Of a DNA stretch of 64,000 nt, positions 18,444 to 56,813 are shown in pieces. The number at the start of each line of letters is the position of its first letter. Within the stretch, counting starts at the first letter, position 1. The position numbers and the translations under genes were made by a program. A model generated the notes under the pieces. It ran no database searches. It was not told the DNA's origin and was given only the letters and a program-made list of their open reading frames with translations. Source of the stretch: Escherichia coli (lineage in GTDB: Bacteria; Pseudomonadota; Gammaproteobacteria; Enterobacterales; Enterobacteriaceae); assembly GCF_051903065.1 (NCBI RefSeq), contig NZ_CP178439.1; one strand, given 5' to 3'.

Positions 18444-18453
18444 TTAAATTATA

Positions 18454-18497
18454 CCCATGTGGGGATCACACCCCATATGGGAGTGATCCCTTTTTTT
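18454..18497 (+). terminator. Structured GC-run intergenic element E8, interleaved dyads
   Basis: CATGTGGGG/CCCCATATG and GGGATCAC/GTGATCCC dyads interleaved, then T7; a third GGATCAC copy overlaps the downstream ribosome-binding site. Confidence 0.5.
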
Positions 18498-18513
18498 ATT
18501 GAGAGAGGATCAC

Positions 18514-19269
18514 ATGAAAATTATCGAAAAAATCATTAATGCCTTTTTGGTTGTTCAACATAAAAAAATACAGGTTAAAAACATTACATTTTTAGACAAT
18601 GGGCAGGGCATGTTCTCTGGTATGTCTTTTGATGCTGATGTTTCACTGGAGTTTATGTATGAATCAGCAAAAGCATATAGTTCTTGTTTCTGTGATATTC
18701 CCTTTCCAGGTTTTGAAGATGCAAATCTGGAGGAAATTACGAAATTTCAATTAGATGCTCTGAAGCAAAGAAAGAATCATTCTTTCTTTGTTAACCATTT
18801 GAGGTTTCCTATAGTTTTAAGGGAAGGGTGCAAAATCGAAAGAGGAGAAGTCTATTCAATTTCGAATTGCACTTATAATAAAGAAAGATTGCAGTATCTT
18901 TTTTCTCAGGATATTTACGGTAAGTTGTATAATTCCTTAGAGAAAGAATTAAGCTCGTTTTTCTCATTTATCAATGTTGAGGTGCACGAGTTGTTAAAAG
19001 ATGCTGTATGCTTTGCATTAAAAATCCTGAATAAGATATCTTTGGATACACCTGAAAGACTTATTAAAGCTTTTAATTATCGTGACTGGTATTGTAGTTA
19101 CGATGTTGAGCTTTTTAGGAAAGGCTTACCTGGTCATATTCTGGAAGAGCTCATTGCTCCAGATATCTTACTTTCAGACCTTAACGGTTGTAGAAAAATA
19201 CTTAGAAATGCAAAACGATTTCTAAATGGACATACACAAACCAATTGTGTTTATATTAAATATGAATGA
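18514..19269 (+). CDS. Hypothetical protein
   Basis: Track ORF from TTG 18499; ATG 18514 with GAGAGAGGA upstream preferred; about 251 aa. Confidence 0.55.
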   Translation: MKIIEKIINAFLVVQHKKIQVKNITFLDNGQGMFSGMSFDADVSLEFMYESAKAYSSCFCDIPFPGFEDANLEEITKFQLDALKQRKNHSFFVNHLRFPIVLREGCKIERGEVYSISNCTYNKERLQYLFSQDIYGKLYNSLEKELSSFFSFINVEVHELLKDAVCFALKILNKISLDTPERLIKAFNYRDWYCSYDVELFRKGLPGHILEELIAPDILLSDLNGCRKILRNAKRFLNGHTQTNCVYIKYE

Positions 19270-19462
19270 TGGTTGGGGCCTGTTGATACCTCACACTCAG
19301 CTAAGTTGATGTCTGACAAAGAAATTAATAACCGAAGTGACTTGAAGAATTTTTCAAAGGTCTTTTTCAAAGAGTGTTTAAGTTCTGGTAAGTCGGAATA
19401 TGAAAACCATCTTAGTGAAAAAGAACATGCGCTTCGCTATAATTATTAATTAAAATTATTTT

Positions 19463-19510
19463 CTCCCATAGGGATTTCTCCCTATGGGAGAAATCCCTCT
19501 ATTAAGAGGG
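19463..19510 (+). terminator. Structured GC-run intergenic element E9
   Basis: TCCCATAGGGA and GGGATTTCTCCC/GGGAGAAATCCC dyads (same arms as E2); CCCTCT-atta-AGAGGG can sequester the downstream ribosome-binding site. Confidence 0.5.
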
Positions 19511-19517
19511 TATTGAA

Positions 19518-20438
19518 ATGAATGCTATACAAAAGTTAGTTGAATCTATTCTTGTTAAAATGGGTTTTGTTGGCGCTGTAGTGGAAAATATATATTTGGA
19601 TTCAAAACCATTTCGGCATATTCGATTTGTGGCTGATATTCCAGTAATATCTTTTCTACCTCATTTGGTGAAATATCTTAAGGGTGCAGACCATCTTTAC
19701 AGTGGTAACGATGATTTGCATCCTCTTTTCATTTATTTTTCCGAAGCGGCTACATTAAAAGCAGGTCCTGTAAATCTCGCGAACTTTCGTTTTGAAGTTT
19801 CTATAGCTTCAACTCATTTACGACTGGTCTCAGAGCAGCCTGATTTGCTTTTCAAAGGATTTAACCGGGATAATCTAGAATACGTTTATTACCGCTCAGA
19901 TTTGGCCTCTAAGGATCTTATACTAGGCCTTGTTGAACACGGTTCTCCTTTCATAAAACATCTACATGGACTTATACAAAAGCGAATTTTAAACGAGTTC
20001 TCTCTGATTTTTTCTGTTCTTGAAAAGATTTTAGAAAGCGCGAAGCCACAAATTCTTGCTTGCTTCCATAGTGTTGATTATGAAATGAACGTAAAAATAA
20101 TAGCCGAAGCTATACCTGAAACTGTATCTAATCAGATAGTCACATCTGATTATATAGTTAATTCTATATCAGATGCGGACAAGTTTATAAATCATGTTCG
20201 TCGCTATTTAGCAGGCAGGGTAATGAAGAGGCGGATATACGCTGAATTAGATGTTTGTGAAGAAACATCAAGTATTTCACTAGTGAACTTAGGATGCTTT
20301 ACGTCTCCTCTGCTCGTTACGGAATATCAAATGTTTAAGCCACACTCTTCAGGGTTATATCGAAAAGCTATAAACAACTCCTTAAAACAGTTCAAACCAG
20401 AAATGCATGTACCTTCTGAAGAACTCTTTTATAATTAA
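19518..20438 (+). CDS. Hypothetical protein
   Basis: 306-aa ORF, ATG start. Confidence 0.55.
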   Translation: MNAIQKLVESILVKMGFVGAVVENIYLDSKPFRHIRFVADIPVISFLPHLVKYLKGADHLYSGNDDLHPLFIYFSEAATLKAGPVNLANFRFEVSIASTHLRLVSEQPDLLFKGFNRDNLEYVYYRSDLASKDLILGLVEHGSPFIKHLHGLIQKRILNEFSLIFSVLEKILESAKPQILACFHSVDYEMNVKIIAEAIPETVSNQIVTSDYIVNSISDADKFINHVRRYLAGRVMKRRIYAELDVCEETSSISLVNLGCFTSPLLVTEYQMFKPHSSGLYRKAINNSLKQFKPEMHVPSEELFYN

Positions 20439-20442
20439 TCTA

Positions 20443-20486
20443 ACCCATCCGGGAACCTGCTTCCCGGTGGGAAGCACTTCCTTTTT
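20443..20486 (+). terminator. Structured GC-run intergenic element E10
   Basis: CCGGGAA/TTCCCGG and GGAAG-cac-TTCC dyads followed by TTTTT; GAGGTAGTGTAAATG ribosome-binding context downstream. Confidence 0.5.
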
Positions 20487-20504
20487 AGTCATGAGGTAGT
20501 GTAA

Positions 20505-21368
20505 ATGTTTAAAGAATCTGACCACGTGGAATTTGTTAGTGCCTTTCTTTATCAAAATTTAGGCCTTAATGTTTCCGCTGACGATATAACCGTTCAATTA
20601 TCTGATACTTCGTTCGACAAAGTAACCTTTGATTACGATGTAGATATCGATAATTTAAATTGTATGTTGGATCTCTACATATCTGAGCTAATAAAGCACA
20701 ACGCATCTTACTCCGATTCTATTCTTTTGAAACAAAAAATAATTTATTTTCTTGGAGTATTTAAGAATTTCGGATTTTTTACGTTTGATATTCGCGGATA
20801 TAGTAATACTTTAAGCCCAGTTAAAGTTATTGATATTGTTTCAATGATTATTAATGACTGTGAAGAGTTATCTAAAGCTAATTCTTCTACTGATGCTATA
20901 AGAAATCTTTATCTCGATAAAATGAAGGTGGATGGGAAAGTGTTAGTTGCGAAATTTGCACTTAAACAGTTTTTTCATTCCGACTTTGGTGACTTTATCT
21001 CATTTGTCGAGAAAAGAATTACAGATTGTCTTAATGAAACTTTAAGGATTATCAAAGCTGTTGAACATGGCTTTGTACGTGTAGGGCAGCATAAGATTAA
21101 TCGCCGTATTAATGATGACTTAAAGTTATGCATTGATTTCAATACTGATGATTATCCGGCAAATATGCCAGATATATATATTAAGTTTAACGATACATTT
21201 GATGGGAACGGGGCGTTATATTGTGACAATGATGCCCTCATATCCCTCTATACCGATGTTGCTTCAATTATCAATGTGCCGGTGATGATGGAAGTAAGAT
21301 TGATCAATAAAAGAGGGCGTGTTGTCTGTGATTCTTCGCATTCAACTTACGTATCTCGGCTTTGTTGA
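20505..21368 (+). pseudogene. Hypothetical protein, paralog A; 3' end truncated by IS903
   Basis: Clear paralog of the gene at 22681-23637 (KVDGKVLVAKFALKQFF vs QVDGQVMIARFALQQFW). The ORF runs into the IS903 left end; removing the IS restores a C-terminus similar to the paralog. Confidence 0.6.
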
Positions 21369-22414
21369 ATAAATCGAACTTTTGCTGAGTTGAAGGATCA
21401 GATCACGTATCTTCCCGACAACGCAGACCGTTCCGTGGCAAAGCAAAAGTTCAAAATCACCAACTGGCCCACCTACAATAAAGCCCTCATCAACCGTGGC
21501 TCCATAACTTTCTGGCTGGATGATGAAGCTATTCAGGCCTGGTATGAGTCAGCAACACCTTCTTCACGAGGCAGACCTCAGCGCTATTCTGACCTTGCCA
21601 TCACGACTGTGCTGGTCATTAAACGCGTATTCAGGCTGACCCTGCGCGCTGCGCAGGGCTTTATTGATTCCATTTTTTCTCTGATGAACGTTCCGCTACG
21701 CTGCCCGGATTACAGCTGTGTCAGCAGGCGGGCAAAGTCGGTTAATGTCAGTTTCAAAACGCCCACCCGGGGTGAAATCGCACACCTGGTAATTGATTCC
21801 ACCGGGCTGAAGGTCTTCGGTGAAGGCGAGTGGAAAGTCAAAAAGCATGGCCAGGAACGCCGCCGTATCTGGCGTAAGCTGCATCTCGCCGTTGACAGTA
21901 AAACACATGAAATCATCTGCGCTGACCTGTCGCTGAACAACGTTACGGACTCAGAGGCCTTCCCCGGGTTAATCCGGCAAACCCACCGGAAAATCAGGTC
22001 AGCCGCCGCCGATGGCGCTTACGATACCCGGCTATGTCACGATGAACTGCGGCGTAAGAAAATCAGCGCGCTTATCCCTCCCCGAAAAGGTGCGGGTTAC
22101 TGGCCCGGTGAATATGCAGACCGTAACCGTGCAGTGGCTAATCAGCGAATGACCGGGAGTAATGCGCGGTGGAAATGGACAACAGATTACAACCGTCGCT
22201 CGATAGCGGAAACGGCGATGTACCGGGTAAAACAGCTGTTCGGGGGTTCACTGACACTGCGTGACTACGATGGTCAGGTTGCAGAGGCTATGGCCCTGGT
22301 ACGAGCGCTGAACAAAATGACGAAAGCAGGTATGCCTGAAAGCGTGCGTATTGCCTGAAAACACAACCCGCTACGGGGGAGACTTACCCGAAATCTGATT
22401 TATTCAACAAAGCC
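21358..22414 (+). mobile_element. IS903 (IS5 family), complete, 1057 bp
   Basis: 18-bp terminal inverted repeats GGCTTTGTTGAATAAATC at both ends; 9-bp direct target duplication ACGTATCTC at 21349-21357 and 22415-22423. Confidence 0.9.
21435..22358 (+). CDS. IS903 transposase
   Basis: 307-aa ORF from GTG 21435 (track extends upstream to TTG 21390); spans nearly the whole element between the inverted repeats; matches my recollection of the IS903 transposase. Confidence 0.85.
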   Translation: MAKQKFKITNWPTYNKALINRGSITFWLDDEAIQAWYESATPSSRGRPQRYSDLAITTVLVIKRVFRLTLRAAQGFIDSIFSLMNVPLRCPDYSCVSRRAKSVNVSFKTPTRGEIAHLVIDSTGLKVFGEGEWKVKKHGQERRRIWRKLHLAVDSKTHEIICADLSLNNVTDSEAFPGLIRQTHRKIRSAAADGAYDTRLCHDELRRKKISALIPPRKGAGYWPGEYADRNRAVANQRMTGSNARWKWTTDYNRRSIAETAMYRVKQLFGGSLTLRDYDGQVAEAMALVRALNKMTKAGMPESVRIA

Positions 22415-22529
22415 ACGTATCTCTCGAAAGTAATGACCGATACAGAGTAACTGATCGCACATTACTAATAACTGAAGCTTTTGACGATTTTCGTAACGCG
22501 TCTCAATGATCCTTTTGCTTCAGTCCAAA

Positions 22530-22540
22530 AAAGTAACTTT
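22530..22540. repeat. AAAGTWACTTT palindromic motif copy 6
   Basis: AAAGTAACTTT, intergenic; embedded between CTTCAGTCCAA and TTGGCTGAAG inverted repeats. Confidence 0.6.
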
Positions 22541-22620
22541 GGTTGGCTGAAGACACTTGTCTATGACAATGTAAAATCTGTCGCTGGCATCTTCTTTTAG
22601 CTTAACCAAATTTTTATCTA

Positions 22621-22662
22621 ACCCAGTGGGGAAGTCGCTTCCCTTCTGGGGCACTTCCTCTC
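22621..22662 (+). terminator. Structured GC-run intergenic element E11
   Basis: CCCAGTGGGGAAG-tcg-CTTCCC..GGGG runs ahead of the GAGGTAGTGTATATG start context, as upstream of paralog A. Confidence 0.4.
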
Positions 22663-22680
22663 AAATTCGAGGTAGTGTAT

Positions 22681-23637
22681 ATGACACATTCATCTGATGA
22701 TAAAAACTATGTCCGAGCAGTTCTGAGTTATCTTGGCATAGATTTTGATGAGGCGGATATAGTATTAAGTGTTTGCCATTGTCAAAGTGACGAGCTTTCT
22801 TTTACCTGTAATATCAAAGCTATTGAACTCAAGAATGCTGTTGATTTATATGTCGATAGTATCTCTGAGAATGAAATAGAAGCTTTAAACAGAGAATCTT
22901 TAAAATCGCGACTCTGTTACTTTCTTGAGGTGTTTGACGCAGTCTCTGGTCAGTACCTTGAAATTTCAGGAAAACACTTTGCAACTAGTCGTTTTGAATA
23001 TGATGATGTTTGTAGTGAAGTTCTTAGCATGTCTAATGATGTTTCTCAGTCGAAAGGTTATGACCGGGATGAATATAACAGACTGATGCAGGTTGATGGT
23101 CAGGTTATGATTGCCCGTTTTGCTTTGCAACAGTTCTGGGATACTCATTTTATTGGACTAATAACATTTGTATCTGAGTCTATAACATCGAGCCTCTATA
23201 AAGCTTATGAAACTTTTAGTGATATTAGTTTGGCTTGCTATAAACTGAGTGAATATTCTTATTCACGCTCTATCAACAGTGAATTGACCCTTAATATTTC
23301 ACTTAAAGAAAATGACTTCTGTGAGGACCTATCTGATTGCTATATGGAAGATGAGGCTTTACCTTCTGGTAGGGTAATTTCTCGACGCAACAATGACTCC
23401 ATAATAAGTATTTATGAGAGCTATGCTGCGGCTTCTTATATTCCGATGATTGCATCTTTGGAAGTCGTTGATGAATACGGCGAAGTGGTTACTGACCTCT
23501 GCCATACCGTTTATGTTTCAGAGTTAACCGGTGGGCGGATTAAAATCCACGACCGTAATGACTTAGTATCTGAAGTTTTCGATAACCTAAGAAATTTAAA
23601 TCTTGCAGTTGGAGATTCAGTTTCACAAGCTGCTTGA
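22681..23637 (+). CDS. Hypothetical protein, paralog B (intact)
   Basis: ATG 22681 with GAGGT upstream; 318 aa; C-terminal half aligns with paralog A. Confidence 0.6.
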   Translation: MTHSSDDKNYVRAVLSYLGIDFDEADIVLSVCHCQSDELSFTCNIKAIELKNAVDLYVDSISENEIEALNRESLKSRLCYFLEVFDAVSGQYLEISGKHFATSRFEYDDVCSEVLSMSNDVSQSKGYDRDEYNRLMQVDGQVMIARFALQQFWDTHFIGLITFVSESITSSLYKAYETFSDISLACYKLSEYSYSRSINSELTLNISLKENDFCEDLSDCYMEDEALPSGRVISRRNNDSIISIYESYAAASYIPMIASLEVVDEYGEVVTDLCHTVYVSELTGGRIKIHDRNDLVSEVFDNLRNLNLAVGDSVSQAA

Positions 23638-23676
23638 TTCTTTCCCTGATTTTGATTTTTTCTCACATACTCTTAT

Positions 23677-23701
23677 GGCACGGTTTCCGTGCCTTTTTTT
23701 T
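23677..23701 (+). terminator. Rho-independent terminator
   Basis: GGCACGG-ttt-CCGTGCC followed by T8. Confidence 0.7.
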
Positions 23702-23900
23702 GCCTCGCTTACAAGCGTCTACTCCTCTTCTACCTATCCCACCTTACATCACCACTTAAAATCTATCTTTCTAATTCCATTATCCTTTTCGTAGCCTCTA
23801 ATGCTCTGGTATGAACATACTCTTTAAACTCAAAAAAGTGCTATTAACGAAAAAAAATCCCTAAAGAGATTTGTATACTGTTCTCAACCAAGGAGAGCTC

Positions 23901-24176
23901 ATGAATGAACTAAAATCCAAAAACGAGAACAGTACCAAAAGCAACTTTCCCCCGGTTGATAATCAGTTTTGCTTTTACCATGTTGATTTCAGCATAGAAC
24001 GACTACTTTCTACGGCCGAGGATCTCCAGCTTGAGTACATCTTCCAGAAACCTGGAAGTGAAGTAAGAAAGGATTTGGTTGAGCGATTCGAACGTGGAGA
24101 GCGCTTTGTTACAGCTTCACACTGTGACAATTTCTGTGAAATCCTTGGTTGTCAAGGCCATCAGGAAAATGCATAA
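23901..24176 (+). CDS. Small hypothetical protein
   Basis: ATG 23901 preceded by AAGGAGAG; track ORF starts at TTG 23871. Confidence 0.45.
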   Translation: MNELKSKNENSTKSNFPPVDNQFCFYHVDFSIERLLSTAEDLQLEYIFQKPGSEVRKDLVERFERGERFVTASHCDNFCEILGCQGHQENA

Positions 24177-24220
24177 ACCCATAAACCTACATTTCCACTT
24201 TTAAGGATGTTCACTAAAGA

Positions 24221-24811
24221 ATGATTGGAGAAAGTATTTTTGACTGGGTAATTTACGGAATATCCATTTTGATATTTGCCTCAGCACTAATTGAAGGAAA
24301 GACAACTCGCTACCCAGCACTTTTTTTCTATGGGAGTTTAATTTTAATGTTAATCCTGATAGTTGCTGGAGGCCTTAACTGGTGGTTCTACAGGTCAAAA
24401 TATGGCGCAGTAATCGTTATCTTCACAGTGGTTTCTTTACTGATGACTCGATTCCGCCTGGTCATATATAAATTAAGATTAAGAAAGTTAGTTTCAGAGA
24501 TCAGATTTCGTATAAAAACGGGTTTTCGTATAATTCTTGTTTTGTCGGATAATGAGGATGAGCGTAATGTTCTGCTGTCTATGCTTAGCAACGTATTGCC
24601 AGAGCAAACGCTTATTCACACGCGTGATGCTCTCGGACCTCATTCAGGGCCTATCCTAAAAGCTCTTGAGCTACATCATCAACAGGGAACAGGTTACATA
24701 CTCGTCTGTGAACAACAAATCTCAGCGCGTACGTGGTTGAGTATCGTAGAAAATGGGAAACCTGATACATCTATAGCTGTTAATTTTCATTCGATCCCAG
24801 AAATGGAGTGA
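24221..24811 (+). CDS. Hypothetical membrane protein
   Basis: 196-aa ORF with three predicted N-terminal transmembrane segments. Confidence 0.5.
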   Translation: MIGESIFDWVIYGISILIFASALIEGKTTRYPALFFYGSLILMLILIVAGGLNWWFYRSKYGAVIVIFTVVSLLMTRFRLVIYKLRLRKLVSEIRFRIKTGFRIILVLSDNEDERNVLLSMLSNVLPEQTLIHTRDALGPHSGPILKALELHHQQGTGYILVCEQQISARTWLSIVENGKPDTSIAVNFHSIPEME

Positions 24812-24818
24812 TTTTTCA

Positions 24819-25076
24819 ATGAGTAGAACCGTTTCACAAAGTGTCACAGAAGATTGTCTTTTTGATACCCGCACACAAGTCAGATTACAACTAAGTCGAA
24901 GCGTTCATAAAACGCTGGCATCTGCTAAAGAAATTTTACAGGGAAGGGGGGTTGATTCGGTCTCTATTGAAGATCTTGTGCGAGCCTGTCTTGAAGAGAA
25001 CCAGCCAATTGATCTCGCCTCACTTTACCTTGAAAATCTCTTAAAACAGAAAGGTACCAGCATTTGCGATTTTTAG
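24819..25076 (+). CDS. Small hypothetical protein (85 aa)
   Basis: ORF 7 nt after the preceding stop, same strand. Confidence 0.4.
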   Translation: MSRTVSQSVTEDCLFDTRTQVRLQLSRSVHKTLASAKEILQGRGVDSVSIEDLVRACLEENQPIDLASLYLENLLKQKGTSICDF

Positions 25077-25149
25077 TGTTTTCAAACCTATTAGATAAAA
25101 TGCCGGTTGTGTTTATATAACATCAATAATTTCATGCAACAGGTAAAAC

Positions 25150-25686
25150 ATGAGTACTCAAAAGCAACTTTCCAGAACAACCGGCACTGAACGTATGTTT
25201 AAGGAAGAGCTGGCGTTATCCTTAATTTGTTGGGTTTTCACCAGTCCATTTACCAACTGGACCGATAAAGTCTTCAGTGGTATTGAAGTTCCGTCTGAAG
25301 GACCGTCAACATTACTGGGTGAGGCTGAAAAATTCTTTCGTTTTGTCGTTAATGAAGAAGGCTACGACGCAGGAAGGGCTGCTCTTGGTCTTGACCTATG
25401 TTGTTTTTCACTTCCGTCGTGTTTGTTCCCGGACGCTGCCCTGTCTGAGGAAGAGGTTATGAGTAAGTTAACCGGAGAAGTTATCCATGGGATTCTTCTT
25501 TCCTTACCTGAATTTATTGATATGCCAGAAGTGCTCGCTTACCAGGTCAGGGATGAAATTCTTGCTTTTAACACTCGCTGTGGAGACGGGATCTTTCATG
25601 GTTGGAACACGGCTTCAGAATTGTGGAAGTTTGAAATCTTTCCCCGCACCACCATCATGATGCAGCATACTTCGGCAATACATTAA
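25150..25686 (+). CDS. Hypothetical protein
   Basis: 178-aa ORF. Confidence 0.5.
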   Translation: MSTQKQLSRTTGTERMFKEELALSLICWVFTSPFTNWTDKVFSGIEVPSEGPSTLLGEAEKFFRFVVNEEGYDAGRAALGLDLCCFSLPSCLFPDAALSEEEVMSKLTGEVIHGILLSLPEFIDMPEVLAYQVRDEILAFNTRCGDGIFHGWNTASELWKFEIFPRTTIMMQHTSAIH

Positions 25687-25702
25687 AATTAGGCGGGGCA
25701 GA

Positions 25703-26149
25703 ATGCATAAAAAACTTTTTCTTCTCGAATGGAAACCCTGTCAGAGCCGCGTATGGGCCGGTTGGATGGCCCTGTGGTTGACTATCAGTTTTCTGATGTT
25801 ATCTGCCTTGCTTATGACAGATCATCTCCTGAACAAAGTCATCCTGCCGCCAACATGGTTGTTGATCTGGTTTTCGCCAATGCTGGGGTTTTTGATAAAA
25901 GTTCGCGTCGTCGAAACTCAACATTTCCTGGAGCATGACCTCTGTGTTGCAGGTTTCTCTTTTTACCGCTGGAAGAGGTTAGTTTCTCCCGGGCTTTGGT
26001 CAGTTGACTGTATAAATGGTCGTTTTCGCCTCAATCGGATCACCCAGGTGGGTAAGACTATCCACTATCCATGGCGTCTCCATTATCATCCTTTGTTCAT
26101 GAGCCCTATCGAACATAAATCGCATGCTGTGAAAGCTGTTTCAAAATGA
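25703..26149 (+). CDS. Hypothetical membrane protein
   Basis: 148-aa ORF with two hydrophobic segments. Confidence 0.45.
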   Translation: MHKKLFLLEWKPCQSRVWAGWMALWLTISFLMLSALLMTDHLLNKVILPPTWLLIWFSPMLGFLIKVRVVETQHFLEHDLCVAGFSFYRWKRLVSPGLWSVDCINGRFRLNRITQVGKTIHYPWRLHYHPLFMSPIEHKSHAVKAVSK

Positions 26150-26221
26150 CTTCTTTAGAGGTTTACATGACATTTATGTTCTGCAAGGTCAGCCAGGGCA
26201 GCAAAATTGATTTGAAATAAC

Positions 26222-27202
26222 ATGAGCCTGGAGAAACGTATGAGTTATGACGATTTGCCCTATTTTCGTGACCAGATTCTGGAACGTATCGACTCGCTTA
26301 AGTGTTTTCTTTCGAACACCCCCCCGCTGATGGCAAACCTGATGACTGTCTCCACCGTATCTCGAACAGAAGAGCGACTGAAGCAGGTTAAACCCATCAG
26401 GGTTAGTGTTAAAGACGATGCTTCGGTTGAGGAAATTATTCAGGCACTTACTGACATCTGTGTGGATGACATAGAGTCATTAAGTCATGATTCCACCAAA
26501 GTGACCACTAAATACCCGGGTCTTATCATTGTCCCAGAAAGAGCAGATCTTCTCGAAAGCTTGATCACATCTATAAATGAAGCAAAAAATGATTTTGCTG
26601 CGGCAATGAGGCGTATCGATAATAAAAAGAATGTCCGTTTTGATAAAGTGCACAAGAAGCTCCCGGGCCTTGTCGCTATGCACTCAACAAGAAATGTCCT
26701 TTTCATCAAGTCCCAGCTTAAAAAAGTTACTTTTTCATGGCGGCTAAACCGAAACCAGGAAGTTAAAACAGCAGAGCAACTTGTGAGTTTGTTGGAGCGC
26801 AGGAGAGCCTCAGAAGTAAAAAATGTAGCAACTACCAATTTGAATGTCGTGTCTAATATCGATAAGGCTTTACACCGTCTTGAATTTCACCCACTGAAGC
26901 AGGGCGAATCTTATCGCCTTTGTCGAACTAACTCTTTCCCTGTTCCGATTGCTCACATTTTTGCATTTAGGCCTGAAGGGCAGGAACGAAACGGGAATAA
27001 ATATGCTGAGACTGATTATTCAGTAGTAAAAGCATCCTTGCCCATTTTCGCAGCAGGCAACATACCTCAATTAAAAACGCTCTCTGACTGGGCTCCTGAA
27101 AACAGCCAGGGCCCGTCCAACCAACGGAAGCTGAGCCTGAAATATACAGAACTCGTGCCGGGGGCTGAGCTGGGCATTTTCATTGTCAGCCCCGAAAATT
27201 AA
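26222..27202 (+). CDS. Hypothetical protein
   Basis: 326-aa ORF; contains one AAAGTTACTTT motif copy. Confidence 0.55.
   Translation: MSLEKRMSYDDLPYFRDQILERIDSLKCFLSNTPPLMANLMTVSTVSRTEERLKQVKPIRVSVKDDASVEEIIQALTDICVDDIESLSHDSTKVTTKYPGLIIVPERADLLESLITSINEAKNDFAAAMRRIDNKKNVRFDKVHKKLPGLVAMHSTRNVLFIKSQLKKVTFSWRLNRNQEVKTAEQLVSLLERRRASEVKNVATTNLNVVSNIDKALHRLEFHPLKQGESYRLCRTNSFPVPIAHIFAFRPEGQERNGNKYAETDYSVVKASLPIFAAGNIPQLKTLSDWAPENSQGPSNQRKLSLKYTELVPGAELGIFIVSPEN
26723..26733. repeat. AAAGTWACTTT palindromic motif copy 7
   Basis: AAAAAGTTACTTTTT (15-bp palindrome) inside the ORFan gene at 26222-27202 (K-K-V-T-F). Confidence 0.6.
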
Positions 27203-27211
27203 GGAACAACA

Positions 27212-28117
27212 ATGCAATGGATTTCCACAGCCAGCCAGAAAATCGATGAGCGTCTCTATCGTGTCTGTGTCTGGGTAAAAAAATATCACGCTGATGCGAT
27301 TAACCGCGTTGTGCTTACCGTTGATCTAAGTAAAGCCCGACATGACCCTGACGAGGACCAGGTAAGAGCAGAGCTGCTGTGCGGCCATTATTTTTTGCTT
27401 CGTAAGGAAAACGCTTCGAACTCTGCGCCTGACGATCAAAAGTTTGCTTTCCTGCCTGACGGGCGCAATCTGTGTTGGCAGACCGCAACCCCGGTGCTTC
27501 AGCATCTCCTGCTCAATAAAAACGTTCCTGAGTCGCTGAGGTTGCTTACGGACTACATACATATGCGTCTGGCCAGGCTGACAATGGTACCAATGTCCGG
27601 AACCATCATGAACGAGGCTCTGCTGGACAGCATCAGCTGGGTTAAGGTGGATTTGACCTACTTCTGGCAGTACGAACAGCTCAGCTCTCATCTGGGACCC
27701 ATCCAGATAACCCACAAGGCACTAGTACGCTTCGGGCATCTGGCAAAGAATGATGAAAACTCCAGTGCCATAAGAATCCTGCGTCAGCGTCTGTCTTCAG
27801 AATTCTTACAAGAATTTCAGATGGCTGAGGATGAGCTAAAGCGCAAACAGTCGTTGATGGGCACCATGGACGTGAAAATGCTGTTTCATGCTCATTACCC
27901 CAGCCAGAAGATGCTGGTGGCTCGATATAAAAATGGTTGGGTAATGGTGGATTGTTTTCTGTTTCATCATACCAAACCTAAGAAAAAAGCAAAAAACAAA
28001 ACTACTGTGGCTAAGCCTCAACTTAAAGAGACTAAAAGAGAAGGGAGTGAAAATGGAACTGGGCATTATGGTGTGCATCGTGTTGTTACTCTCCGTGGCG
28101 GCGGCGTGGATCAGTAA
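27212..28117 (+). CDS. Hypothetical protein with Lys-rich C-terminus
   Basis: 301-aa ORF starting 10 nt after the preceding stop. Confidence 0.55.
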   Translation: MQWISTASQKIDERLYRVCVWVKKYHADAINRVVLTVDLSKARHDPDEDQVRAELLCGHYFLLRKENASNSAPDDQKFAFLPDGRNLCWQTATPVLQHLLLNKNVPESLRLLTDYIHMRLARLTMVPMSGTIMNEALLDSISWVKVDLTYFWQYEQLSSHLGPIQITHKALVRFGHLAKNDENSSAIRILRQRLSSEFLQEFQMAEDELKRKQSLMGTMDVKMLFHAHYPSQKMLVARYKNGWVMVDCFLFHHTKPKKKAKNKTTVAKPQLKETKREGSENGTGHYGVHRVVTLRGGGVDQ

Positions 28118-28397
28118 TAAGACAGTTGATTTGCTCGAAAGATTCTATTTCAAGCGTCCGCTGAGCATGGAGTACGCGGCATGGCTACGTGTAATGTGTG
28201 CAGGCTTGTTATTGGTTTTTATTCAGGTTGCTCCACAATTTACACTTCTGTATACCCTTAAACTTGTCACGCTTATTAATCTTGGAATCCAGACAATGAA
28301 ATTAAATGGCGTGTACAAATATAAAAGAACGGGAATTTTGCCTCCGGGAGGGGCACTCTCTAATCTCACCAGACTTAACCCGTTCAAGAAAAAATAA
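28053..28397 (+). CDS. Small hypothetical membrane protein
   Basis: ATG 28053 preceded by AAGGGAG; overlaps the 3' end of the preceding gene in another frame; two hydrophobic segments. Confidence 0.4.
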   Translation: MELGIMVCIVLLLSVAAAWISNKTVDLLERFYFKRPLSMEYAAWLRVMCAGLLLVFIQVAPQFTLLYTLKLVTLINLGIQTMKLNGVYKYKRTGILPPGGALSNLTRLNPFKKK

Positions 28398-28418
28398 AGT
28401 TATGCGCCCGTGAGGGCG

Positions 28419-29603
28419 CTATTCATCAAAGGCATTTCGCATAAGCTTGATCATTGCTTTTTTACCAGCTTCAATATTACGAATGTAGCGCATAACCATT
28501 TCTTCATTCGACCAGTTCCCCATTTCCATAATCTGTGGTAGCGAGTAACCTTCAATATTTAGCTGTATCGCTCCGCCTACACGAACGCTGTGCCCTGTCC
28601 AGTAACGAGTTTTAGTCTCATTTGGATAAAGCTCATTCCACATCTCTTTAAATGCTCGTAAAAGGGAATTTTTGCTGAGCATACCGGCATCGTCCACAGT
28701 GTCTTCTTCATCTTCATCGTTCAGAAGACTTTGCTTAGCACGATAGGGTAGGTTATGCCTTTTAAGAAGTTCAGATAGCTCATTCCCCTTACTCCGAAGC
28801 TTCCAGCCGGGTGGCATATAGCCTGTATCATGGAAATTTACGGCCTGGAAAAGGAATTCATCCGGATGACTGTGCTGATCCATTTTCACGAGGTTCATCA
28901 ATCTCAAGAGGCAGTTAGTTAACTGACGTGTCAGCCGGTAGGTAAGAAGTGTACTAATGTTCGTTTTTGTACGGTATACCGTCAGGTTAAATTCACCGGT
29001 CATACTATCCAGAGACAGATCTTTCAGACGTATACGTCGAATTTCGGATGAACGGAGCAGTGTTTCAAAGCCTGTCCAGATCAGGCACAGGTCACGAAGT
29101 TTACGAACTGAGTTTGTAGTACTGCGTAACTTTATCAGAGCCTTGAGATCGCCAATAAGAAAGGGAGTTGCCTGTTTAGTCGTCTTTCGCTTCCGGGCTT
29201 CCGATTGTTTTAAGGCTTCCAGCATGTACCATGCTTCAGACGTAATAATCCCGGGCAGGTTAAGCCCTTTTTTATGGATACTATTTAAGGCCTGAAGACA
29301 GCTGTTTATGCTGCTTCGTGACAATTTGCCTTCAAGATGCCCCATAAACGCAAGCAGAGCGTCCTCAGACACGGGGAGCGAACTTACTGGCCAGTCTGTA
29401 TGCAACCGGGCATTCGCCAGATACCATTCGTTCCATACTCGTAGCCAGTGCAGATAGGTTTTAGCAGTGTTGTATCTCAGATGGGAAAAGTAACGGATCA
29501 AGCGTGAAAGCTGTTTATCATGGTTGCCGAACGTTTCCAGCTGCTGATGCAATTCGCTTTCCGAAAACTGTCTGATCACTGATTGATTCTTCATCCTGCT
29601 CAC
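28419..29603 (-). CDS. Tyrosine site-specific recombinase (phage-integrase family)
   Basis: C-terminal catalytic region with GHSVRVGGA (H-x-x-R) and the nucleophile Tyr in MRYIRN; upstream Arg box (LRSSEIRRI); 394 aa. Confidence 0.75.
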   Translation of the reverse strand: MSRMKNQSVIRQFSESELHQQLETFGNHDKQLSRLIRYFSHLRYNTAKTYLHWLRVWNEWYLANARLHTDWPVSSLPVSEDALLAFMGHLEGKLSRSSINSCLQALNSIHKKGLNLPGIITSEAWYMLEALKQSEARKRKTTKQATPFLIGDLKALIKLRSTTNSVRKLRDLCLIWTGFETLLRSSEIRRIRLKDLSLDSMTGEFNLTVYRTKTNISTLLTYRLTRQLTNCLLRLMNLVKMDQHSHPDEFLFQAVNFHDTGYMPPGWKLRSKGNELSELLKRHNLPYRAKQSLLNDEDEEDTVDDAGMLSKNSLLRAFKEMWNELYPNETKTRYWTGHSVRVGGAIQLNIEGYSLPQIMEMGNWSNEEMVMRYIRNIEAGKKAMIKLMRNAFDE

Positions 29604-29758
29604 CGGGATACACTGGTTTTAATTACAGGTCATTTTAGCACTCATGTACCTGGTTATGAACAGGGTGGAAACAACGAAAAAGGTTGTGAAATCGTTAGGC
29701 TTAAGTGAAAAATGATATTAAGATTATCCCTGGCCAGTTGAGGCCTGTCTAAAGAAGG

Positions 29759-29977
29759 TTGATTATGTCTGACACAAAGCAGTCTTATTTAATGAAATTC
29801 CGTAAGTGTAGTTCGTTCGAAACGCTCGAAAAAGTATTTGAAAGGTTATGTGAAAAAAACTCGGGTGTCGCCTCTCTTGAAATTTCTGGTGCTTATGATC
29901 ATCGTAAAGCCGAACTGACAATGAAAAAGTTATATGACAAAGTTCCTGCGAGTGTGTGGACCTTTGTTCGCGAGTAA
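29759..29977 (+). CDS. Small hypothetical protein (72 aa)
   Basis: Isolated short ORF in the recombinase-proximal intergenic region; weak evidence. Confidence 0.3.
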   Translation: MIMSDTKQSYLMKFRKCSSFETLEKVFERLCEKNSGVASLEISGAYDHRKAELTMKKLYDKVPASVWTFVRE

Positions 29978-30167
29978 TTATTAATATTGGCACAACAAAA
30001 AGACTGTGCCTGGATTTGAAAATAGTTTATGCCCCTTTCGGGGCTAAAGGCATTGTAATAGCCTGTCTTTTAAAGTTGTTTATTAAGTTCGGAGAAAAAC
30101 TTTAATCATAAGCCAAGCCCACTGCTAAATACATCCGATATTCTCCTTCATTTTATTAGAAGTGATA

Positions 30168-30178
30168 AAAGTTACTTT
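30168..30178. repeat. AAAGTWACTTT palindromic motif copy 8
   Basis: AAAGTTACTTT, intergenic, upstream of the IS100-interrupted gene. Confidence 0.6.
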
Positions 30179-30184
30179 ACCTAA

Positions 30185-32774
<2,590 letters not shown>

Positions 32775-32779
32775 CTGAT

Positions 32780-33379
32780 ATTGAATATGAAATCAGTCAG
32801 GTGCAGCTCGGGCGACGTAAAACAACATACAGTGAGTGCATTGAAAGCCTGATCATTGATGAGACCAGTTCCCGGGAATGGCTATATCATCCATTAATGC
32901 ATGAACTTGAATCTGAACCTCTTCAGGAGTATCGGGGACGGGAGCCTTCAGAGGAAGGGCCTCTTCTTCAGCGCCTTGCTGACTGTAAGATGAAATTGCC
33001 TGATATCCTTCCGGGCAGTCATAACGCGCTAGTCAGGTTACAGCAGGATACGATTGTATGTCTGTGTCGGTTAACGGTTCGGGCTTATGACATCGCTCAG
33101 ACCGATGAATTTCCTTTGTTCCTTCGCTATTTCAGGTTGCACTGCCTGGAAAACAGCGAACATGTCAGTTACGAAAGACTGATCTGCTGGCAGGAAATGA
33201 TTTCAAAAACCCAGGAAGGCCAGTCCTTGACACAAAACGAACTTGAATATCTTCATGAGATTGTCCGCATCGCCTTTTACAATCACCGGCTTAACAATGT
33301 CAGTATTTCAGATGTTAAAAACCATGACACTGGAAAGAAGAGCGGCAGGGTAGAGTCACAAAACTATTCACTTTTATAA
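32780..33379 (+). pseudogene. Zinc-finger protein (CoiA-like?), 3' fragment downstream of IS100
   Basis: In frame with 30308-30820 once IS100 and one copy of the duplication are removed; the track ORF start at 32747 is inside IS100. Confidence 0.5.
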
Positions 33380-33545
33380 ATAACTTGGGCTTTGCGCATT
33401 AAACCCTTGCCGCAGGCGGTGTACCGCATATCCGGCACAGACAGTCAGTTTTTTCTGGCAGCTTAAATTTGACACTGCTTAATATAGTGATTCATTAAAC
33501 AGGTTCAGTATGCTGCCAGAACGTTTTAGTCGTAATGGGCGTCCG

Positions 33546-35099
33546 TTAGTTTTCAACTAACTGAACGACGACCAGCCTGCCGCCTTCCTCCTTTGACAGA
33601 ACAAACTGAGCGTTATTCGTCAGTTCAATTTTTTCCCCAATGGCAATCTGTCGTTTATCCGGTAATGACATAAGCCCATTTATGCCTTCATTTACTAACC
33701 ACCACTGATCGTTATGGAAAACAAAATACCCAACTCGTTTCCTTTGTGCATCGGTTGTGCGCTCATTTGGCGCAATGAGGCGATTCACATGCCACGCATA
33801 GATTGACTGCCCGCTCCACACCATCAACCGGTGGTCGTCAGGACGATAACTGCCTTCCTTTCGGGATGAATATAAATTTAGAACCGGTAATTTACCCTTG
33901 TATGGCGTACCGCAGTAGGGACAAACCGGCTTTGTCTTACCTGAGAAAACGTACCATTTCTGTTCACACGCCTTGTTCTGGCAGGGCTGTATCAGATCGA
34001 CTGTTTTAACCAGGGCACTTTCCCACTCATCGGCGGTCGGGCGTTTATTGGCATCGTGTAAGCCATCAATAAAGGCGCGTTCAAACAAAGGCGTCAAATA
34101 AGGGCCCATGATGGTGTAAGGAATTTTCTCCGGGTCAGCCCAGGGCAGTGAAAAGGAGGATAGCTGACTGACTTTGACTGCATTGCTTTTGTCTGTCGGA
34201 TGTTCAATGAAGAGTGCCTTCTCACCCATAGATAAGGTCTCATCACGTACTTCATCCGACATGTCATGTATTTTTCCGCCACGTAGCGGATGACGGAAGA
34301 ACAGATACATGTAGATAAGCACCGACAGCGCATGACGGTCAGTAGAAATGCTTGGCAATACGCGGTTCGGATCCTCTTTGGAAAGATGGCTGGTTTTCAC
34401 CACTTCCGGAGCGATAAAATCCGGGGTGCCCACGACGTCGGGAGGATACTTTCCAGGGACAACCAGGCCGTCTACGTCAATGATGCAGGCATGTCCCATT
34501 TCTGGATCGATAAGCACGTTTTTATAGCTTAGATCGCTGTGACAGAGACCTGCCGCATGCATCCTTCTGACGGCTCTTGTTAGCAGCAGACAGACCTTGA
34601 GATAGGTAAGCGTATTGCCTCGTTCACGTGGGTCGAGAAATTTATTCTGGTTGCTGGCGCTGGCAAACCATTTGCCTTCCTTTTCACGGCCTTTTATGCC
34701 AAGAAAATCATCGTTTTTAGAGCCGTATTTAAAGAAAAAGTAGCTTTTGTAGGTTGGAACCACGATGCCGATTTTATCCCCATGCTCAACAACGTGGGTC
34801 GGCCAGCAAAACAGGTCCTTCCAGTATTCACCTCCGGACTGGCCAAAAATGTTTTGCCTGTAGCGTCCGGTGATCATATCAATCCGATCCCGGGCCTGCT
34901 CGTTCTGCGGTTTATGATAAAAAGCGACGACGTATGATTTATCAGGCGAGAAGTAAACATCCTTCATCGAGCCCGAACCAATTACCTCGTCAACATACTG
35001 GACTGTTTCGCCGTCCTTTGTTTTGCACGTAACAATATTTGCCATATTGATCACCGAAGAAGCGTATCCCTTACCACAACACCGCAATAGTGCGGTCAT
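33546..35099 (-). CDS. Ser/Thr protein kinase, Ter-linked, with C-terminal zinc-ribbon region
   Basis: Glycine loop GSGSMKDVYF, catalytic loop HSDLSYKNVLI, DFG-like IIDVDGL; C-terminal CPYCG; the true start may be the internal ATG at 35045. Confidence 0.7.
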   Translation of the reverse strand: MTALLRCCGKGYASSVINMANIVTCKTKDGETVQYVDEVIGSGSMKDVYFSPDKSYVVAFYHKPQNEQARDRIDMITGRYRQNIFGQSGGEYWKDLFCWPTHVVEHGDKIGIVVPTYKSYFFFKYGSKNDDFLGIKGREKEGKWFASASNQNKFLDPRERGNTLTYLKVCLLLTRAVRRMHAAGLCHSDLSYKNVLIDPEMGHACIIDVDGLVVPGKYPPDVVGTPDFIAPEVVKTSHLSKEDPNRVLPSISTDRHALSVLIYMYLFFRHPLRGGKIHDMSDEVRDETLSMGEKALFIEHPTDKSNAVKVSQLSSFSLPWADPEKIPYTIMGPYLTPLFERAFIDGLHDANKRPTADEWESALVKTVDLIQPCQNKACEQKWYVFSGKTKPVCPYCGTPYKGKLPVLNLYSSRKEGSYRPDDHRLMVWSGQSIYAWHVNRLIAPNERTTDAQRKRVGYFVFHNDQWWLVNEGINGLMSLPDKRQIAIGEKIELTNNAQFVLSKEEGGRLVVVQLVEN

Positions 35100-36711
35100 C
35101 GTGGTTCCCTGTGGAGAAAAAGTTAAGCCAGTCGCCTAACCTCTCAGGCGCAATACTGGCGTCTGTAAGGACAGGGATGAGCTCATCAAGGAGACGGGTC
35201 CATTTTTCGTCACTGCGAAGCCCGTTATCTGTCTCAAACAGAGGGTCTGATACGCCATCTGTCATGAGGATCAAGTGAGATACATCATTCCATTTACCCA
35301 CGCTGATGCGGCCGCTAAACGAGGGGTCTGCGATAATGCTCTGGTCAAGAAAGCGGGTTTGTCCTGCGTATTCTCCGCTATCGGGATTTCCCAGTATCCT
35401 GACTTTACCGGAAGGGCTGTATGCACCTATCGCACCATCACCAAGCCAGAATGCAGCCGCAAACAGCTCGTTATCAGTTCGTAGCGCTACAGTTGCCAGT
35501 AGGGTTGTTGAATAGGATTTCACAGGTTGTTCTGCACAAATGGCTTCGTTCTGGATACTGTTGACCGCGAGCGTAGCTGCCTGTTTAAAATGATGAAGCA
35601 TGGCGTTTATGGTTGCCTGCTGATCGCTCCCTTCCCACGCCGTGATGTGCTGCTTTAGATGGACGCCTTTCAAACCACTGAGCTGATTGAAAAGGTAATC
35701 GCCAGCCGTTTGGACTGCAATCCGGGAGCCTTCCCGGGAATTTACCGCACTACCGGCCCCGTCTGCGACCAGCATGACAGACCATCCTGTTTCCTGGCAG
35801 TGGTTGATATAGAAGTCGTCATCTCTGAAGCTCCCGGCATGCTCATGAGATCGTCCCCGGCGACTGGCGGCAGCAATACGTATGTCACCCCTGACCAGGC
35901 CAGCAGCGTCCAGATGGGACTTAGGGTAGGAAGCGTCTGCTGGTGGCTCTACCACCTTCCACAGGCTTCTCGGATCGGGATTGACTATAAAAAGCTGTTT
36001 TGTTTCGCATTCGTCGTGCGAAGCGCATGACCAGAGTACTGAAAGCTCTATATCGCCGCTTTCGGTGGGTGTACCTGTCAGCAACTTATGCTCTTTGTCA
36101 AAGGTCAGGCCAATGTTCCTGGGAAAGACAACGTCCCTGACAGTAGCCTGCTGGCCCTCATCCAGAACTATAGCAACCGGCGAAGAGAAACGTTCGCCTG
36201 CGCGGGCGTTGGGAATAACTATTTTAGCTCTCGGGGGAACGGCAGGTGGCACAGCTAATCCGGCCCGCTGCTGGCCTGTCGGTATCTGCCCGGGTTTTAA
36301 TACCAGGGAAGACAGGTTTTCGTCTTCCCTCTGTGCTGGTTTATCAAATTCGTAATAAGGCATCAGCTTCCAGAACGGAGGATGAGGTTCATTTTCTGGC
36401 AGGGGTTGCAGTAATGGTGTATCGGTAGCGTCAATGCCCGGGTTATCAGCATCACTTACGACCGTTTGTTGCTGATCGGAAAGGCTGGATGCTGACGAGG
36501 GGGCGATCTCTGCGTCGTTATAACCTTCGCTAACCCGCGCAGATAAACCCTGTGCAAGGCTCTCAATCCGCTCTTTAAGCCGCATAATCTCTTCAGTAAG
36601 GGAAGGGTCGTGCGATAGAAGAAAAAGCCGCTCACCTTCTACAGGGTGGCCCAGCTCAGACAGCACTAAGCGGATAATCTTCTCTTCAAGTAAAACATTT
36701 TGCGACATCAA
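35071..36711 (-). CDS. PP2C-family Ser/Thr protein phosphatase, Ter-linked
   Basis: PP2C motifs LVADGAGSAV, WLGDGAIG, LMTDGVSD; 546 aa; overlaps neighbours at both ends (operon-like). Confidence 0.65.
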   Translation of the reverse strand: MMSQNVLLEEKIIRLVLSELGHPVEGERLFLLSHDPSLTEEIMRLKERIESLAQGLSARVSEGYNDAEIAPSSASSLSDQQQTVVSDADNPGIDATDTPLLQPLPENEPHPPFWKLMPYYEFDKPAQREDENLSSLVLKPGQIPTGQQRAGLAVPPAVPPRAKIVIPNARAGERFSSPVAIVLDEGQQATVRDVVFPRNIGLTFDKEHKLLTGTPTESGDIELSVLWSCASHDECETKQLFIVNPDPRSLWKVVEPPADASYPKSHLDAAGLVRGDIRIAAASRRGRSHEHAGSFRDDDFYINHCQETGWSVMLVADGAGSAVNSREGSRIAVQTAGDYLFNQLSGLKGVHLKQHITAWEGSDQQATINAMLHHFKQAATLAVNSIQNEAICAEQPVKSYSTTLLATVALRTDNELFAAAFWLGDGAIGAYSPSGKVRILGNPDSGEYAGQTRFLDQSIIADPSFSGRISVGKWNDVSHLILMTDGVSDPLFETDNGLRSDEKWTRLLDELIPVLTDASIAPERLGDWLNFFSTGNHDDRTIAVLW

Positions 36712-37748: not shown

Positions 37749-37833
37749 AATTTTCCTCGTACGGCTGGTACGGCCAGCAGAAAACGTTGCTGTACAGAAA
37801 GGTGCTGCCCGGAAAGCAGCACCTTTCTGTCTG

Positions 37834-54582: not shown

Positions 54583-54805
54583 TATCTAACCTCCCTTATA
54601 ATGAAAAATGGCGCTTTACTTCTGACCAGATGCCGAAGCCTTGAATGCAGCCGGAACTGTCGTTGTTTCTACTTTACAGAAATGGAATTAAAAAGTGGTG
54701 ATGCTGTCAGCGCCAGTGATATAAGACGGTAATTCGCCATTTGGATTGTCCGCTCCACCCAACATGTTGTTTCCTTAAGGTTCTCACACCAGAAAGGACA
54801 TCAAC

Positions 54806-56775
<1,970 letters not shown>

Positions 56776-56813
56776 CGAAAGTATTTAGCGGGCATGAAAA
56801 TGGCAAATAACGG

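Follow-up and report, generated by a model that had tools for sequence, protein, structure and literature searches.

What is a tyrosine recombinase doing at the end of a run of small and membrane-protein genes on a resistance megaplasmid? The question is raised by a 64,000-nucleotide stretch of Escherichia coli DNA (contig NZ_CP178439.1 of assembly GCF_051903065.1; hereafter, the window), in which a block of genes at 23901-28397 runs into a recombinase gene on the opposite strand. A first interpretation made from the letters alone (hereafter, the sequence-only reading) held that the recombinase may either mark the edge of an acquired island or be a resolvase or shufflon-type recombinase of this region. 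Here we find that the region is a fixed, ordinary and highly conserved part of the IncHI2 resistance-megaplasmid backbone, and neither a mobile nor a variable unit. To judge by its sequence, the recombinase is of the Cre type, with all six catalytic residues, and of neither the Xer nor the integron type. It probably acts as a dimer or multimer resolvase that is predicted to be SOS-inducible and redundant with the host XerCD/FtsK system. IncHI2 plasmids are major carriers of mcr, extended-spectrum β-lactamase, carbapenemase and metal-resistance genes, and persist very stably in the bacteria that carry them. Most of the biology described here is known, the function of the key gene being already supported by published genetics on its ortholog in plasmid R27. 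The new results are modest: the assignment to the Cre type, a predicted LexA operator that is well conserved, the confirmed Tus fold of a neighbouring gene product and the finding that no lox-type site lies nearby.

The recombinase and its backbone setting

The recombinase gene (28419-29594, minus strand) encodes a protein of 391 residues and is the positional ortholog of R27 R0183. The sequence-only reading had correctly recognized a minus-strand tyrosine recombinase convergent with the block; the RefSeq gene starts at the ATG at 29594, and the start at 29603 that it had used is an upstream GTG. When the protein was searched against the PDB with phmmer, only P1 Cre and its engineered derivative Tre were matched (best E = 2e-23), with similarity in both domains (residues 37-253 and 329-387). 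BLASTP aligned it with P1 Cre almost from end to end, at 27% identity (E = 8e-27). In an alignment of five sequences, including Cre and three plasmid orthologs, residues R181, K210, H335, R338, W361 and Y370 are invariant and align with R173, K201, H289, R292, W315 and Y324 of Cre. The plasmid recombinase family shares an insertion of about 40-45 residues relative to Cre, and at 391 residues the protein lies within the 300-400 residues used as the length criterion for Cre-type enzymes (PMC10250229). It matches Pfam Phage_integrase. The classification by profile models that the sequence-only reading had called for gave scores far below cutoff for the other classes considered: 17.1 bits against the XerC model TIGR02224 (cutoff 335), so the protein is not a Xer recombinase, and 15.8 bits against NF040815, an archaeal XerA/integron-type model (cutoff 220), so that by its score, with no search aimed specifically at neighbouring attI/attC sites, it is not an integron integrase. 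In a translated search of plasmids, P1-like plasmids appear at about 27% identity; these matches are presumably Cre itself.

The setting of this gene is highly conserved. A 6.7-kb query around the block is 100% identical to many IncHI2A/MOBH conjugative megaplasmids from Salmonella, E. coli, Enterobacter and other hosts, pAPEC-O1-R among them. It is matched by 1,419 plasmid records, 1,094 of which cover at least 80% of it at no less than 95% identity, and the recombinase protein is encoded, at 90% identity or above, by about 1,130 plasmids. The window spans the backbone from the transfer genes trhU/trhN/trhI to a tellurite-resistance cluster, and is colinear with pAPEC-O1-R apart from three insertion sequence (IS) insertions. 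The gene order, including the genes on both sides, recurs in 11 lineages, across which recombinase identity falls from 75% to 37%. They include plasmids of IncHI1 (R27 and pPSJ-16_1) and of Klebsiella (MOBH), one Pantoea plasmid (IncHI1B), a contig from Photorhabdus and several from metagenomes. The conserved order runs from small open reading frames (ORFs) through a Tus-like gene, a gene for a protein of about 260-300 residues and one for a membrane protein of about 110 residues to the convergent recombinase gene, followed by a divergent hha gene and an ORF with a CoiA_N domain.

Probable dimer resolution and its predicted control

The function of the recombinase is best approached through R27. 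The R27 protein WP_001086279.1 is 64% identical to the IncHI2 recombinase and is encoded at the same position next to hha, with the same neighbours. In R27 nomenclature, hha is R0182 and the potential Y-recombinase gene is R0183 (PMC11724359 for R0183). R27 from which the Y-recombinase gene has been removed is stable in wild-type cells, and is readily lost if XerC, XerD or the FtsK ATPase is inactive (PMC11724359). The authors of that study concluded that dimers of R27 are resolved by two systems that can replace each other, one being the self-encoded Y-recombinase and the other an XerCD site that depends on FtsK (PMC11724359). Given the shared position and the 64% identity, we infer the same dimer-resolution role for the IncHI2 protein. 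Of the possibilities offered by the sequence-only reading, it is thus the resolvase that gains support, through an ortholog with published stability genetics (PMC11724359). IncHI2 plasmids of 241-275 kb were tested in that work only for the XerCD site, xrs (PMC11724359). The xrs of R27 lies about 24 kb from the R27 recombinase gene and is an element separate from the recombinase; no xrs-like sequence of the R27 type was found in the window.

In the scheme that we favour, homologous recombination would fuse sister plasmids, leaving two copies of a plasmid site in direct repeat. The recombinase would then recombine the two directly repeated sites, as Cre does at loxP, restoring monomers that can be partitioned. 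This route would be redundant with that of the host XerCD/FtsK system, which would act at a separate plasmid xrs site. A LexA operator would keep the amount of recombinase low in unstressed cells, and SOS induction would raise it when RecA activity, and hence dimer formation, rises; induction might also follow conjugative entry.

The regulatory part of this scheme comes from the intergenic region upstream of the recombinase gene. The interval of about 700 bp (29595-30337) that had been described as mostly non-coding holds the 213-bp hha gene, the recombinase promoter and a predicted LexA box. A promoter scan predicts a sigma-70 promoter for the recombinase gene at 29632-29660 on the minus strand (TTCATA, a spacer of 17 bp and TAAAAT, with a TG extended -10), and this promoter block is conserved in both the four-lineage and the seven-lineage alignments. 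The predicted LexA (SOS) box, ACCTGTAATTAAAACCAGTG (29611-29630, minus strand), lies 1 nucleotide after the predicted -10 and overlaps the predicted transcription start. Scored with a matrix of 26 E. coli boxes, it is the best match in the 64-kb window at 15.6 bits; the next match reaches 11.5 bits, known boxes range from 12.5 to 25.6 bits, and shuffled windows yield 0.25 matches of at least 14 bits. The motif CTG-N10-CAG is invariant across the seven aligned lineages while the surrounding sequence diverges. A box of 12-24 bits, placed 0-1 nucleotide after a -10-like hexamer, is present in all 11 lineages, even where the flanking DNA no longer aligns; in one lineage, it had been hidden by an over-long recombinase gene call. 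The E. coli-type consensus is CTGT-N8-ACAG (PMC3108266). One half-site of the IncHI2 box reads CCAG instead of ACAG, as it does in several bona fide boxes of the matrix.

Because a LexA-type box is conserved at its promoter, the recombinase is predicted to be LexA-repressed and SOS-induced. Such control would make biological sense for an enzyme that undoes dimers made by RecA. No report of a LexA box at the promoter of this recombinase was found in the literature searched, and the R27 dimer study makes no mention of LexA, SOS or the promoter (PMC11724359).

Several points tell against a SOS-controlled resolvase and have to be set beside this evidence. The stability genetics belong to the 64%-identical R27 protein and not to the IncHI2 one, and they show a stability defect, not recombination itself. 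The constant linkage of the gene to the Tus-fold gene and hha is left unexplained by a plain resolvase model. With 15.6 bits, the IncHI2 LexA box scores in the middle of the range, and that of Photorhabdus, which reads CTAT, is weak at 11-12 bits. Finally, no lox-type palindrome was found at window positions 20157-37795 or within about 5 kb of the IncHI2 recombinase gene, and no palindrome is consistently placed across the seven lineages.

The search behind this last result followed the published logic for Cre-type sites, in the style of SeLOX: arms of 13 bp, a spacer of 4-10 bp and at most 2 mismatches (at least 11 of 13 arm positions), near the gene. Several candidate sites were weighed. A lox-type site between the recombinase gene and hha was rejected: the conserved block there is made up of the promoter and the LexA box, and the extra symmetry is weak (about 8 of 13 arm positions in IncHI1, counted by hand). 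A strong palindrome lies downstream of the CoiA-like ORF in IncHI1 (L002:1439-1474) and in Pantoea (L003:4199-4234), where it extends to perfect arms of 21 bp. IncHI1 has a second, related palindrome (L002:904-925); all of these palindromes share the form GCTAAyG-N6-8-CATTAGs, and the two IncHI1 copies are identical at 18 of 22 positions and flank a 477-bp ORF. The idea of an IncHI1 cassette flanked by two sites was dropped, the 3' end of the intervening ORF being conserved in Pantoea. Nor is the CoiA-side palindrome still favoured as a recombination site, since its loop length is 8 in one case and 6 in the other, IncHI2 has the tellurite-resistance cluster in place of this segment, and unrelated GC-rich hairpins occur at similar places in other lineages. 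The CoiA-side palindromes are more likely to be hairpins or terminators.

A better lead, although an unproven one, is a palindrome that we call P2, ATGGGATTTA-N8-TAAATCCCAT; its 10-bp arms are the same in IncHI1 R27 and in IncHI2, and its 8-bp spacers differ. It lies outside the window, at about 108.77 kb in pAPEC-O1-R (L008:38772-38805) and about 146.79 kb in R27 (L005:11786-11819), which places it about 48 kb and 13 kb, respectively, from the recombinase gene. P2 is part of the backbone in about 1,125 plasmids; the regions of the Klebsiella and Pantoea plasmids that were compared do not contain it. When 100,044 species genomes were scanned, two IncHI2-type contigs matched, and all other matches were chance-like. 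In IncHI2, P2 sits with two other palindromes in an islet of about 380 bp, between an apparent Tn3-family end, which differs between two IncHI2 sub-lineages, and a Tn7-like end. P2 is a candidate protein-binding or lox-like site, for which no link to the enzyme was found.

The Tus-fold neighbour and competing readings

The neighbour that a plain resolvase model leaves without a part is the gene at 26240-27202 (plus strand), which encodes a 320-residue plasmid-borne protein with the fold of Tus, the replication terminus site-binding family, and is very divergent from E. coli Tus. The protein matches the Pfam family Ter (PF05472) at 69 bits (cutoff 22) and falls far below the NCBIfam equivalog cutoffs. 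Its AlphaFold2 model, built with eight orthologs, has a mean predicted local distance difference test score (pLDDT) of 79.8. With Foldseek, this model matched the E. coli Tus-Ter structures 1ecr and 4xr2 over the full length (E = 7e-18, template modelling (TM) score 0.71-0.76, about 15% identity); against 1ecr alone, the TM score was 0.73-0.76 over 326 columns. The gene is linked to the recombinase in all eight of the lineages whose compared locus extends far enough. When the E. coli Ter core (GNRNGTTGTAAYKA) was used as the query, the window gave two one-mismatch matches against 1.7 expected, which is chance level, with the proviso that a protein this divergent may recognize another sequence. 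GTTGTA repeats near P2 looked Ter-like and were set aside; we take them to be the TnsB-site repeats that belong to the neighbouring end of a Tn7-like transposon. Plasmids are known to carry 'mobile' tus genes, the function of which is unexplored, and it has been proposed that the tus of the chromosome descends from a plasmid gene (PMC6549158).

This linkage gives the strongest competitor to routine dimer resolution. The recombinase might be one component, with the Tus-fold protein and perhaps also the 301-residue and 114-residue proteins encoded between them, of a wider module for replication termination or establishment, routine dimer resolution not being its main role; it would act at a site inside a plasmid fork trap, or be induced by the SOS burst after conjugation to deal with incoming or multimeric DNA. 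Consistent with such a module, the genes for the Tus-fold protein, the protein of about 260-300 residues, the membrane protein of about 110 residues and the recombinase are linked in every lineage with a locus of sufficient extent, the Tus fold is confirmed by the AlphaFold2 model and Foldseek, the LexA box is conserved, replication initiator genes repeatedly adjoin the module in relatives, and plasmid tus genes are a recognized class whose function is unexplored (PMC6549158). However, canonical Ter sites are at chance in the window, no site was found for either the Tus-fold protein or the recombinase, dimer resolution already accounts for the published R27 phenotype, and linkage alone does not show joint function. 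We regard either version of the module as unlikely.

Somewhat less probable again is a specific and more ambitious form, an SOS-inducible, chromosome-style 'terminus kit' for megaplasmids. Here, a LexA-repressed Cre-type recombinase would act at a lox-like site, for which P2 is the best lead, and the Tus-fold protein would arrest forks at plasmid-specific Ter-like sites. Were this doubtful reading true, it would yield a new orthogonal pair of Cre-type recombinase and site for genome engineering.

The two remaining explanations, both taken up from the sequence-only reading, are highly improbable. That the recombinase is an integrase marking the edge of an acquired island, which it would insert or excise at att sites, could draw on the position of its gene at the end of a co-oriented array, on the Phage_integrase match and on the location of the block between two IS elements in this plasmid, but is effectively refuted already: 80% or more of the block is present, at no less than 95% identity, in about 1,100 IncHI2 plasmids; gene order is kept across the 11 lineages, even where recombinase identity is as low as 37%; the block is not flanked by att-like direct repeats; each IS is bounded by a target duplication of its own and is missing from most relatives; and the structure closest to the protein is that of Cre and not that of a lambda-type integrase, which would have an arm-binding domain. 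The core sites or flanking direct repeats that had been suggested as a check did not materialize, the repeats at 22415-30820 being only short, two-copy and at chance level, and neither att-like sequences nor multiple shufflon cores being among them. Rci and similar tyrosine recombinases invert segments on some large conjugative plasmids, and membrane-protein genes adjoin the recombinase gene here; a shufflon-type or invertase-type switch that varies the neighbouring membrane or small proteins nevertheless has as little to recommend it as the island, as neither the block nor its surroundings hold multiple inverted core repeats, no invertible segment or rearranged arrangement appears among the loci compared, the block is found over 80% or more of its length in about 1,100 plasmid records, and the recombinase aligns with Cre over its full length (the comparison was made with Cre, not directly with Rci).

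Dimer resolution by a Cre-type enzyme remains our preferred reading. As the outcome that would speak against its own proposal, the sequence-only reading had named a conserved backbone dimer-resolution protein with its site elsewhere, in a block that does not vary among relatives. A conserved backbone protein of this probable function and an invariant block are indeed what we find; the third element, a site elsewhere, agrees only in part, no site having been found near the gene or elsewhere.

Neighbouring genes and known counterparts

The block consists of eight plus-strand ORFs at 23901-28397, the coordinates of which, as given by the sequence-only reading, agree with the RefSeq annotation of identical plasmids. 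Together with the recombinase and hha they make ten ORFs, all conserved at the protein level (51-90% identity against the IncHI1 and Pantoea plasmids), and therefore genuine genes. The description of the block as several small or membrane proteins stands, three ORF products having transmembrane-like segments in a Kyte-Doolittle scan (24221-24811, 25703-26149 and 28053-28397), except for the 320-residue Tus-fold protein and a 301-residue protein, which are neither small nor membrane proteins. Searches of Pfam, NCBIfam, PADLOC and PHROGs gave the small, acidic and membrane proteins of the block no family, defence-system or phage-family assignment.

The first gene (23901-24176, plus strand, as are all of the block) lies downstream of a terminator-like hairpin at 23677-23693 and encodes a conserved hypothetical protein of 91 residues (WP_001004201.1; 51-57% identity to the IncHI1 and Pantoea orthologs). 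It is followed by the gene for a 196-residue membrane protein (24221-24811), with about three N-terminal transmembrane segments (residues 5-25, 29-58 and 62-83) and 63% identity in IncHI1 and Pantoea; this protein has no match in Pfam, NCBIfam, PHROG or PADLOC. Next come a conserved hypothetical protein of 85 residues (24819-25076; 64-65% identity in IncHI1 and Pantoea), for which the family search gave no significant match, and an acidic one of 178 residues (25150-25686; 25 D+E against 13 K+R), which has orthologs of 57-59% identity in IncHI1 and Pantoea and a counterpart of 25% identity in the Klebsiella plasmid. A 148-residue membrane protein with about two transmembrane segments (25703-26149; residues 19-40 and 46-70; 56-58% identity in IncHI1 and Pantoea) precedes the Tus-like gene. 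A 16-nucleotide inverted repeat (26111-26126 and 26166-26181, 88% complementary, 39 nucleotides apart) reaches from the end of this ORF into the sequence immediately before the Tus-like gene; its conservation is not obvious in the other aligned lineages.

Downstream of the Tus-like gene, the 301-residue conserved hypothetical protein (27212-28117) is 77-78% identical in IncHI1 and Pantoea and, in that comparison, better conserved than the recombinase. Only 13 homolog clusters were found among 5.8 billion proteins, and its AlphaFold2 model is poor (pLDDT 54). The 3' end of its gene shares 65 bp (28053-28117), read in a different frame, with the gene for the 114-residue membrane protein (28053-28397; 78-80% identity in IncHI1 and Pantoea). 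This overlap, pointed out by the sequence-only reading, is real: the same arrangement is annotated in the IncHI1, Pantoea and Photorhabdus relatives. Between the convergent 114-residue and recombinase genes, a GC-rich hairpin, GCGCCC-gtga-GGGCGC (28404-28419), read directly from the sequence, is a probable bidirectional terminator; as it has no T-run, the terminator scan passed it over.

On the far side of the recombinase, and divergent from it, hha (29765-29977, plus strand, 213 bp) encodes an Hha/YmoA nucleoid-associated regulator (Pfam HHA, 68 bits, cutoff 25) that is 90% identical to R27 Hha (R0182). It adjoins the recombinase gene in 9 of the 11 lineages; an unannotated 64-residue ORF takes this place in Photorhabdus, and a YeeR_C gene intervenes in a Rahnella-like locus. 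The CoiA_N-domain ORF (30338-33379, plus strand), part of the conserved synteny, measures 1083 bp when intact, and the intact pAPEC-O1-R product matches Pfam CoiA_N at 32.5 bits. In the window, it is split into 30338-30820 and 32775-33379 by IS100 (IS21 family, istA/istB; 30821-32774), with a 5-bp target duplication, CTGAT; this insertion is common to a subset of IncHI2 plasmids. An IS903-like element of the IS5 family (21358-22414, 1057 bp; 9-bp target duplication ACGTATCTC) lies outside the module, near the 3' end of a gene for a protein of about 310 residues, and is absent at that position from pAPEC-O1-R and most relatives. Both flanking IS elements are independent simple insertions into a colinear backbone. 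The third insertion relative to pAPEC-O1-R, at 54707-56834 (2128 bp, ORFs of 390 and 266 residues, 6-bp duplication ATGCTG), looks like a member of the IS21 family. Rfam found no RNA gene at 21000-34000.

Three features of the wider region were also seen. Just upstream of the block, at about 17600-23637, is a run of tandem paralogous genes for proteins of about 290-320 residues with no known function, one of which is the gene that carries the IS903-like element; the run is also kept in IncHI1 and in metagenomic relatives. Beyond the CoiA-like ORF, an IncHI2 segment of about 21 kb (window 33.5-54.7 kb) contains the tellurite-resistance cluster and a few neighbouring genes, where IncHI1 and Pantoea have only the 477-bp ORF and the palindromes. 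Since this segment sits exactly at that position, the break between the backbones of these lineages falls just past the CoiA-like ORF and not at the recombinase. In relatives, the hha/CoiA-like end of the module is where replication initiator genes are repeatedly found: an IS1-flanked RepFIA in R27-type plasmids (L002:3158-6267), RepB with a long iteron-like repeat array in a Klebsiella plasmid (L004:1560-3330) and Rep3_N in a metagenomic plasmid (L027:7803-8885). IncHI2 has none there.

The basic picture is unchanged by these details: this is ordinary conserved backbone, neither island nor switch. What is gained is that the plasmid-encoded one of the two redundant dimer-resolution routes of R27 is now placed in the Cre family. 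If SOS control is true, plasmid maintenance would be tied to DNA-damaging antibiotics such as quinolones, as has been shown for integron integrases. The linkage of the recombinase to a plasmid Tus homolog is universal among the lineages whose compared locus extends far enough.

The locus can be compared with four known systems. The R27 R0183 system is the nearest; its genetics concern R27 only, and the report gives neither a recombination site nor the Cre-type class (PMC11724359). With the Tus/Ter fork trap and the mobile tus genes (PMC6549158), the Tus-fold protein shares a score above the Ter threshold and a model that superposes on E. coli Tus, but its identity to that protein is only about 15%, and E. 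coli-type Ter sites in the window do not exceed chance. For the predicted control, the integron integrases IntI1 and IntIA offer the precedent, with a LexA box next to or overlapping the promoter -10 (PMC3108266). As in that case, a tyrosine recombinase on a mobile element has an E. coli-type box at the -10 that is conserved across lineages; by contrast, the enzyme here is of the Cre type, its presumed job is dimer resolution instead of cassette capture, and LexA control is predicted only.

The closest relative of the enzyme itself is Cre, which acts at loxP of phage P1. Both domains are similar, the six catalytic residues, including the Cre-specific tryptophan, are shared, the region of the C-terminal helix is very similar (GHSxRVG...GxWxxxxxVMxYIRN), and both enzymes are carried on low-copy extrachromosomal replicons. 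Cre, too, resolves dimers on its low-copy replicon. Set against the Cre-type systems as a group (Cre/loxP, Dre/rox, Vika/vox, Panto/pox and Nigri/nox), the IncHI recombinase differs in its insertion of about 40-45 residues relative to Cre and in having no 13-8-13 site nearby, and is distinguished by two features of its own: the conserved LexA box at its promoter and the fixed linkage of its gene to the Tus-like and hha genes.

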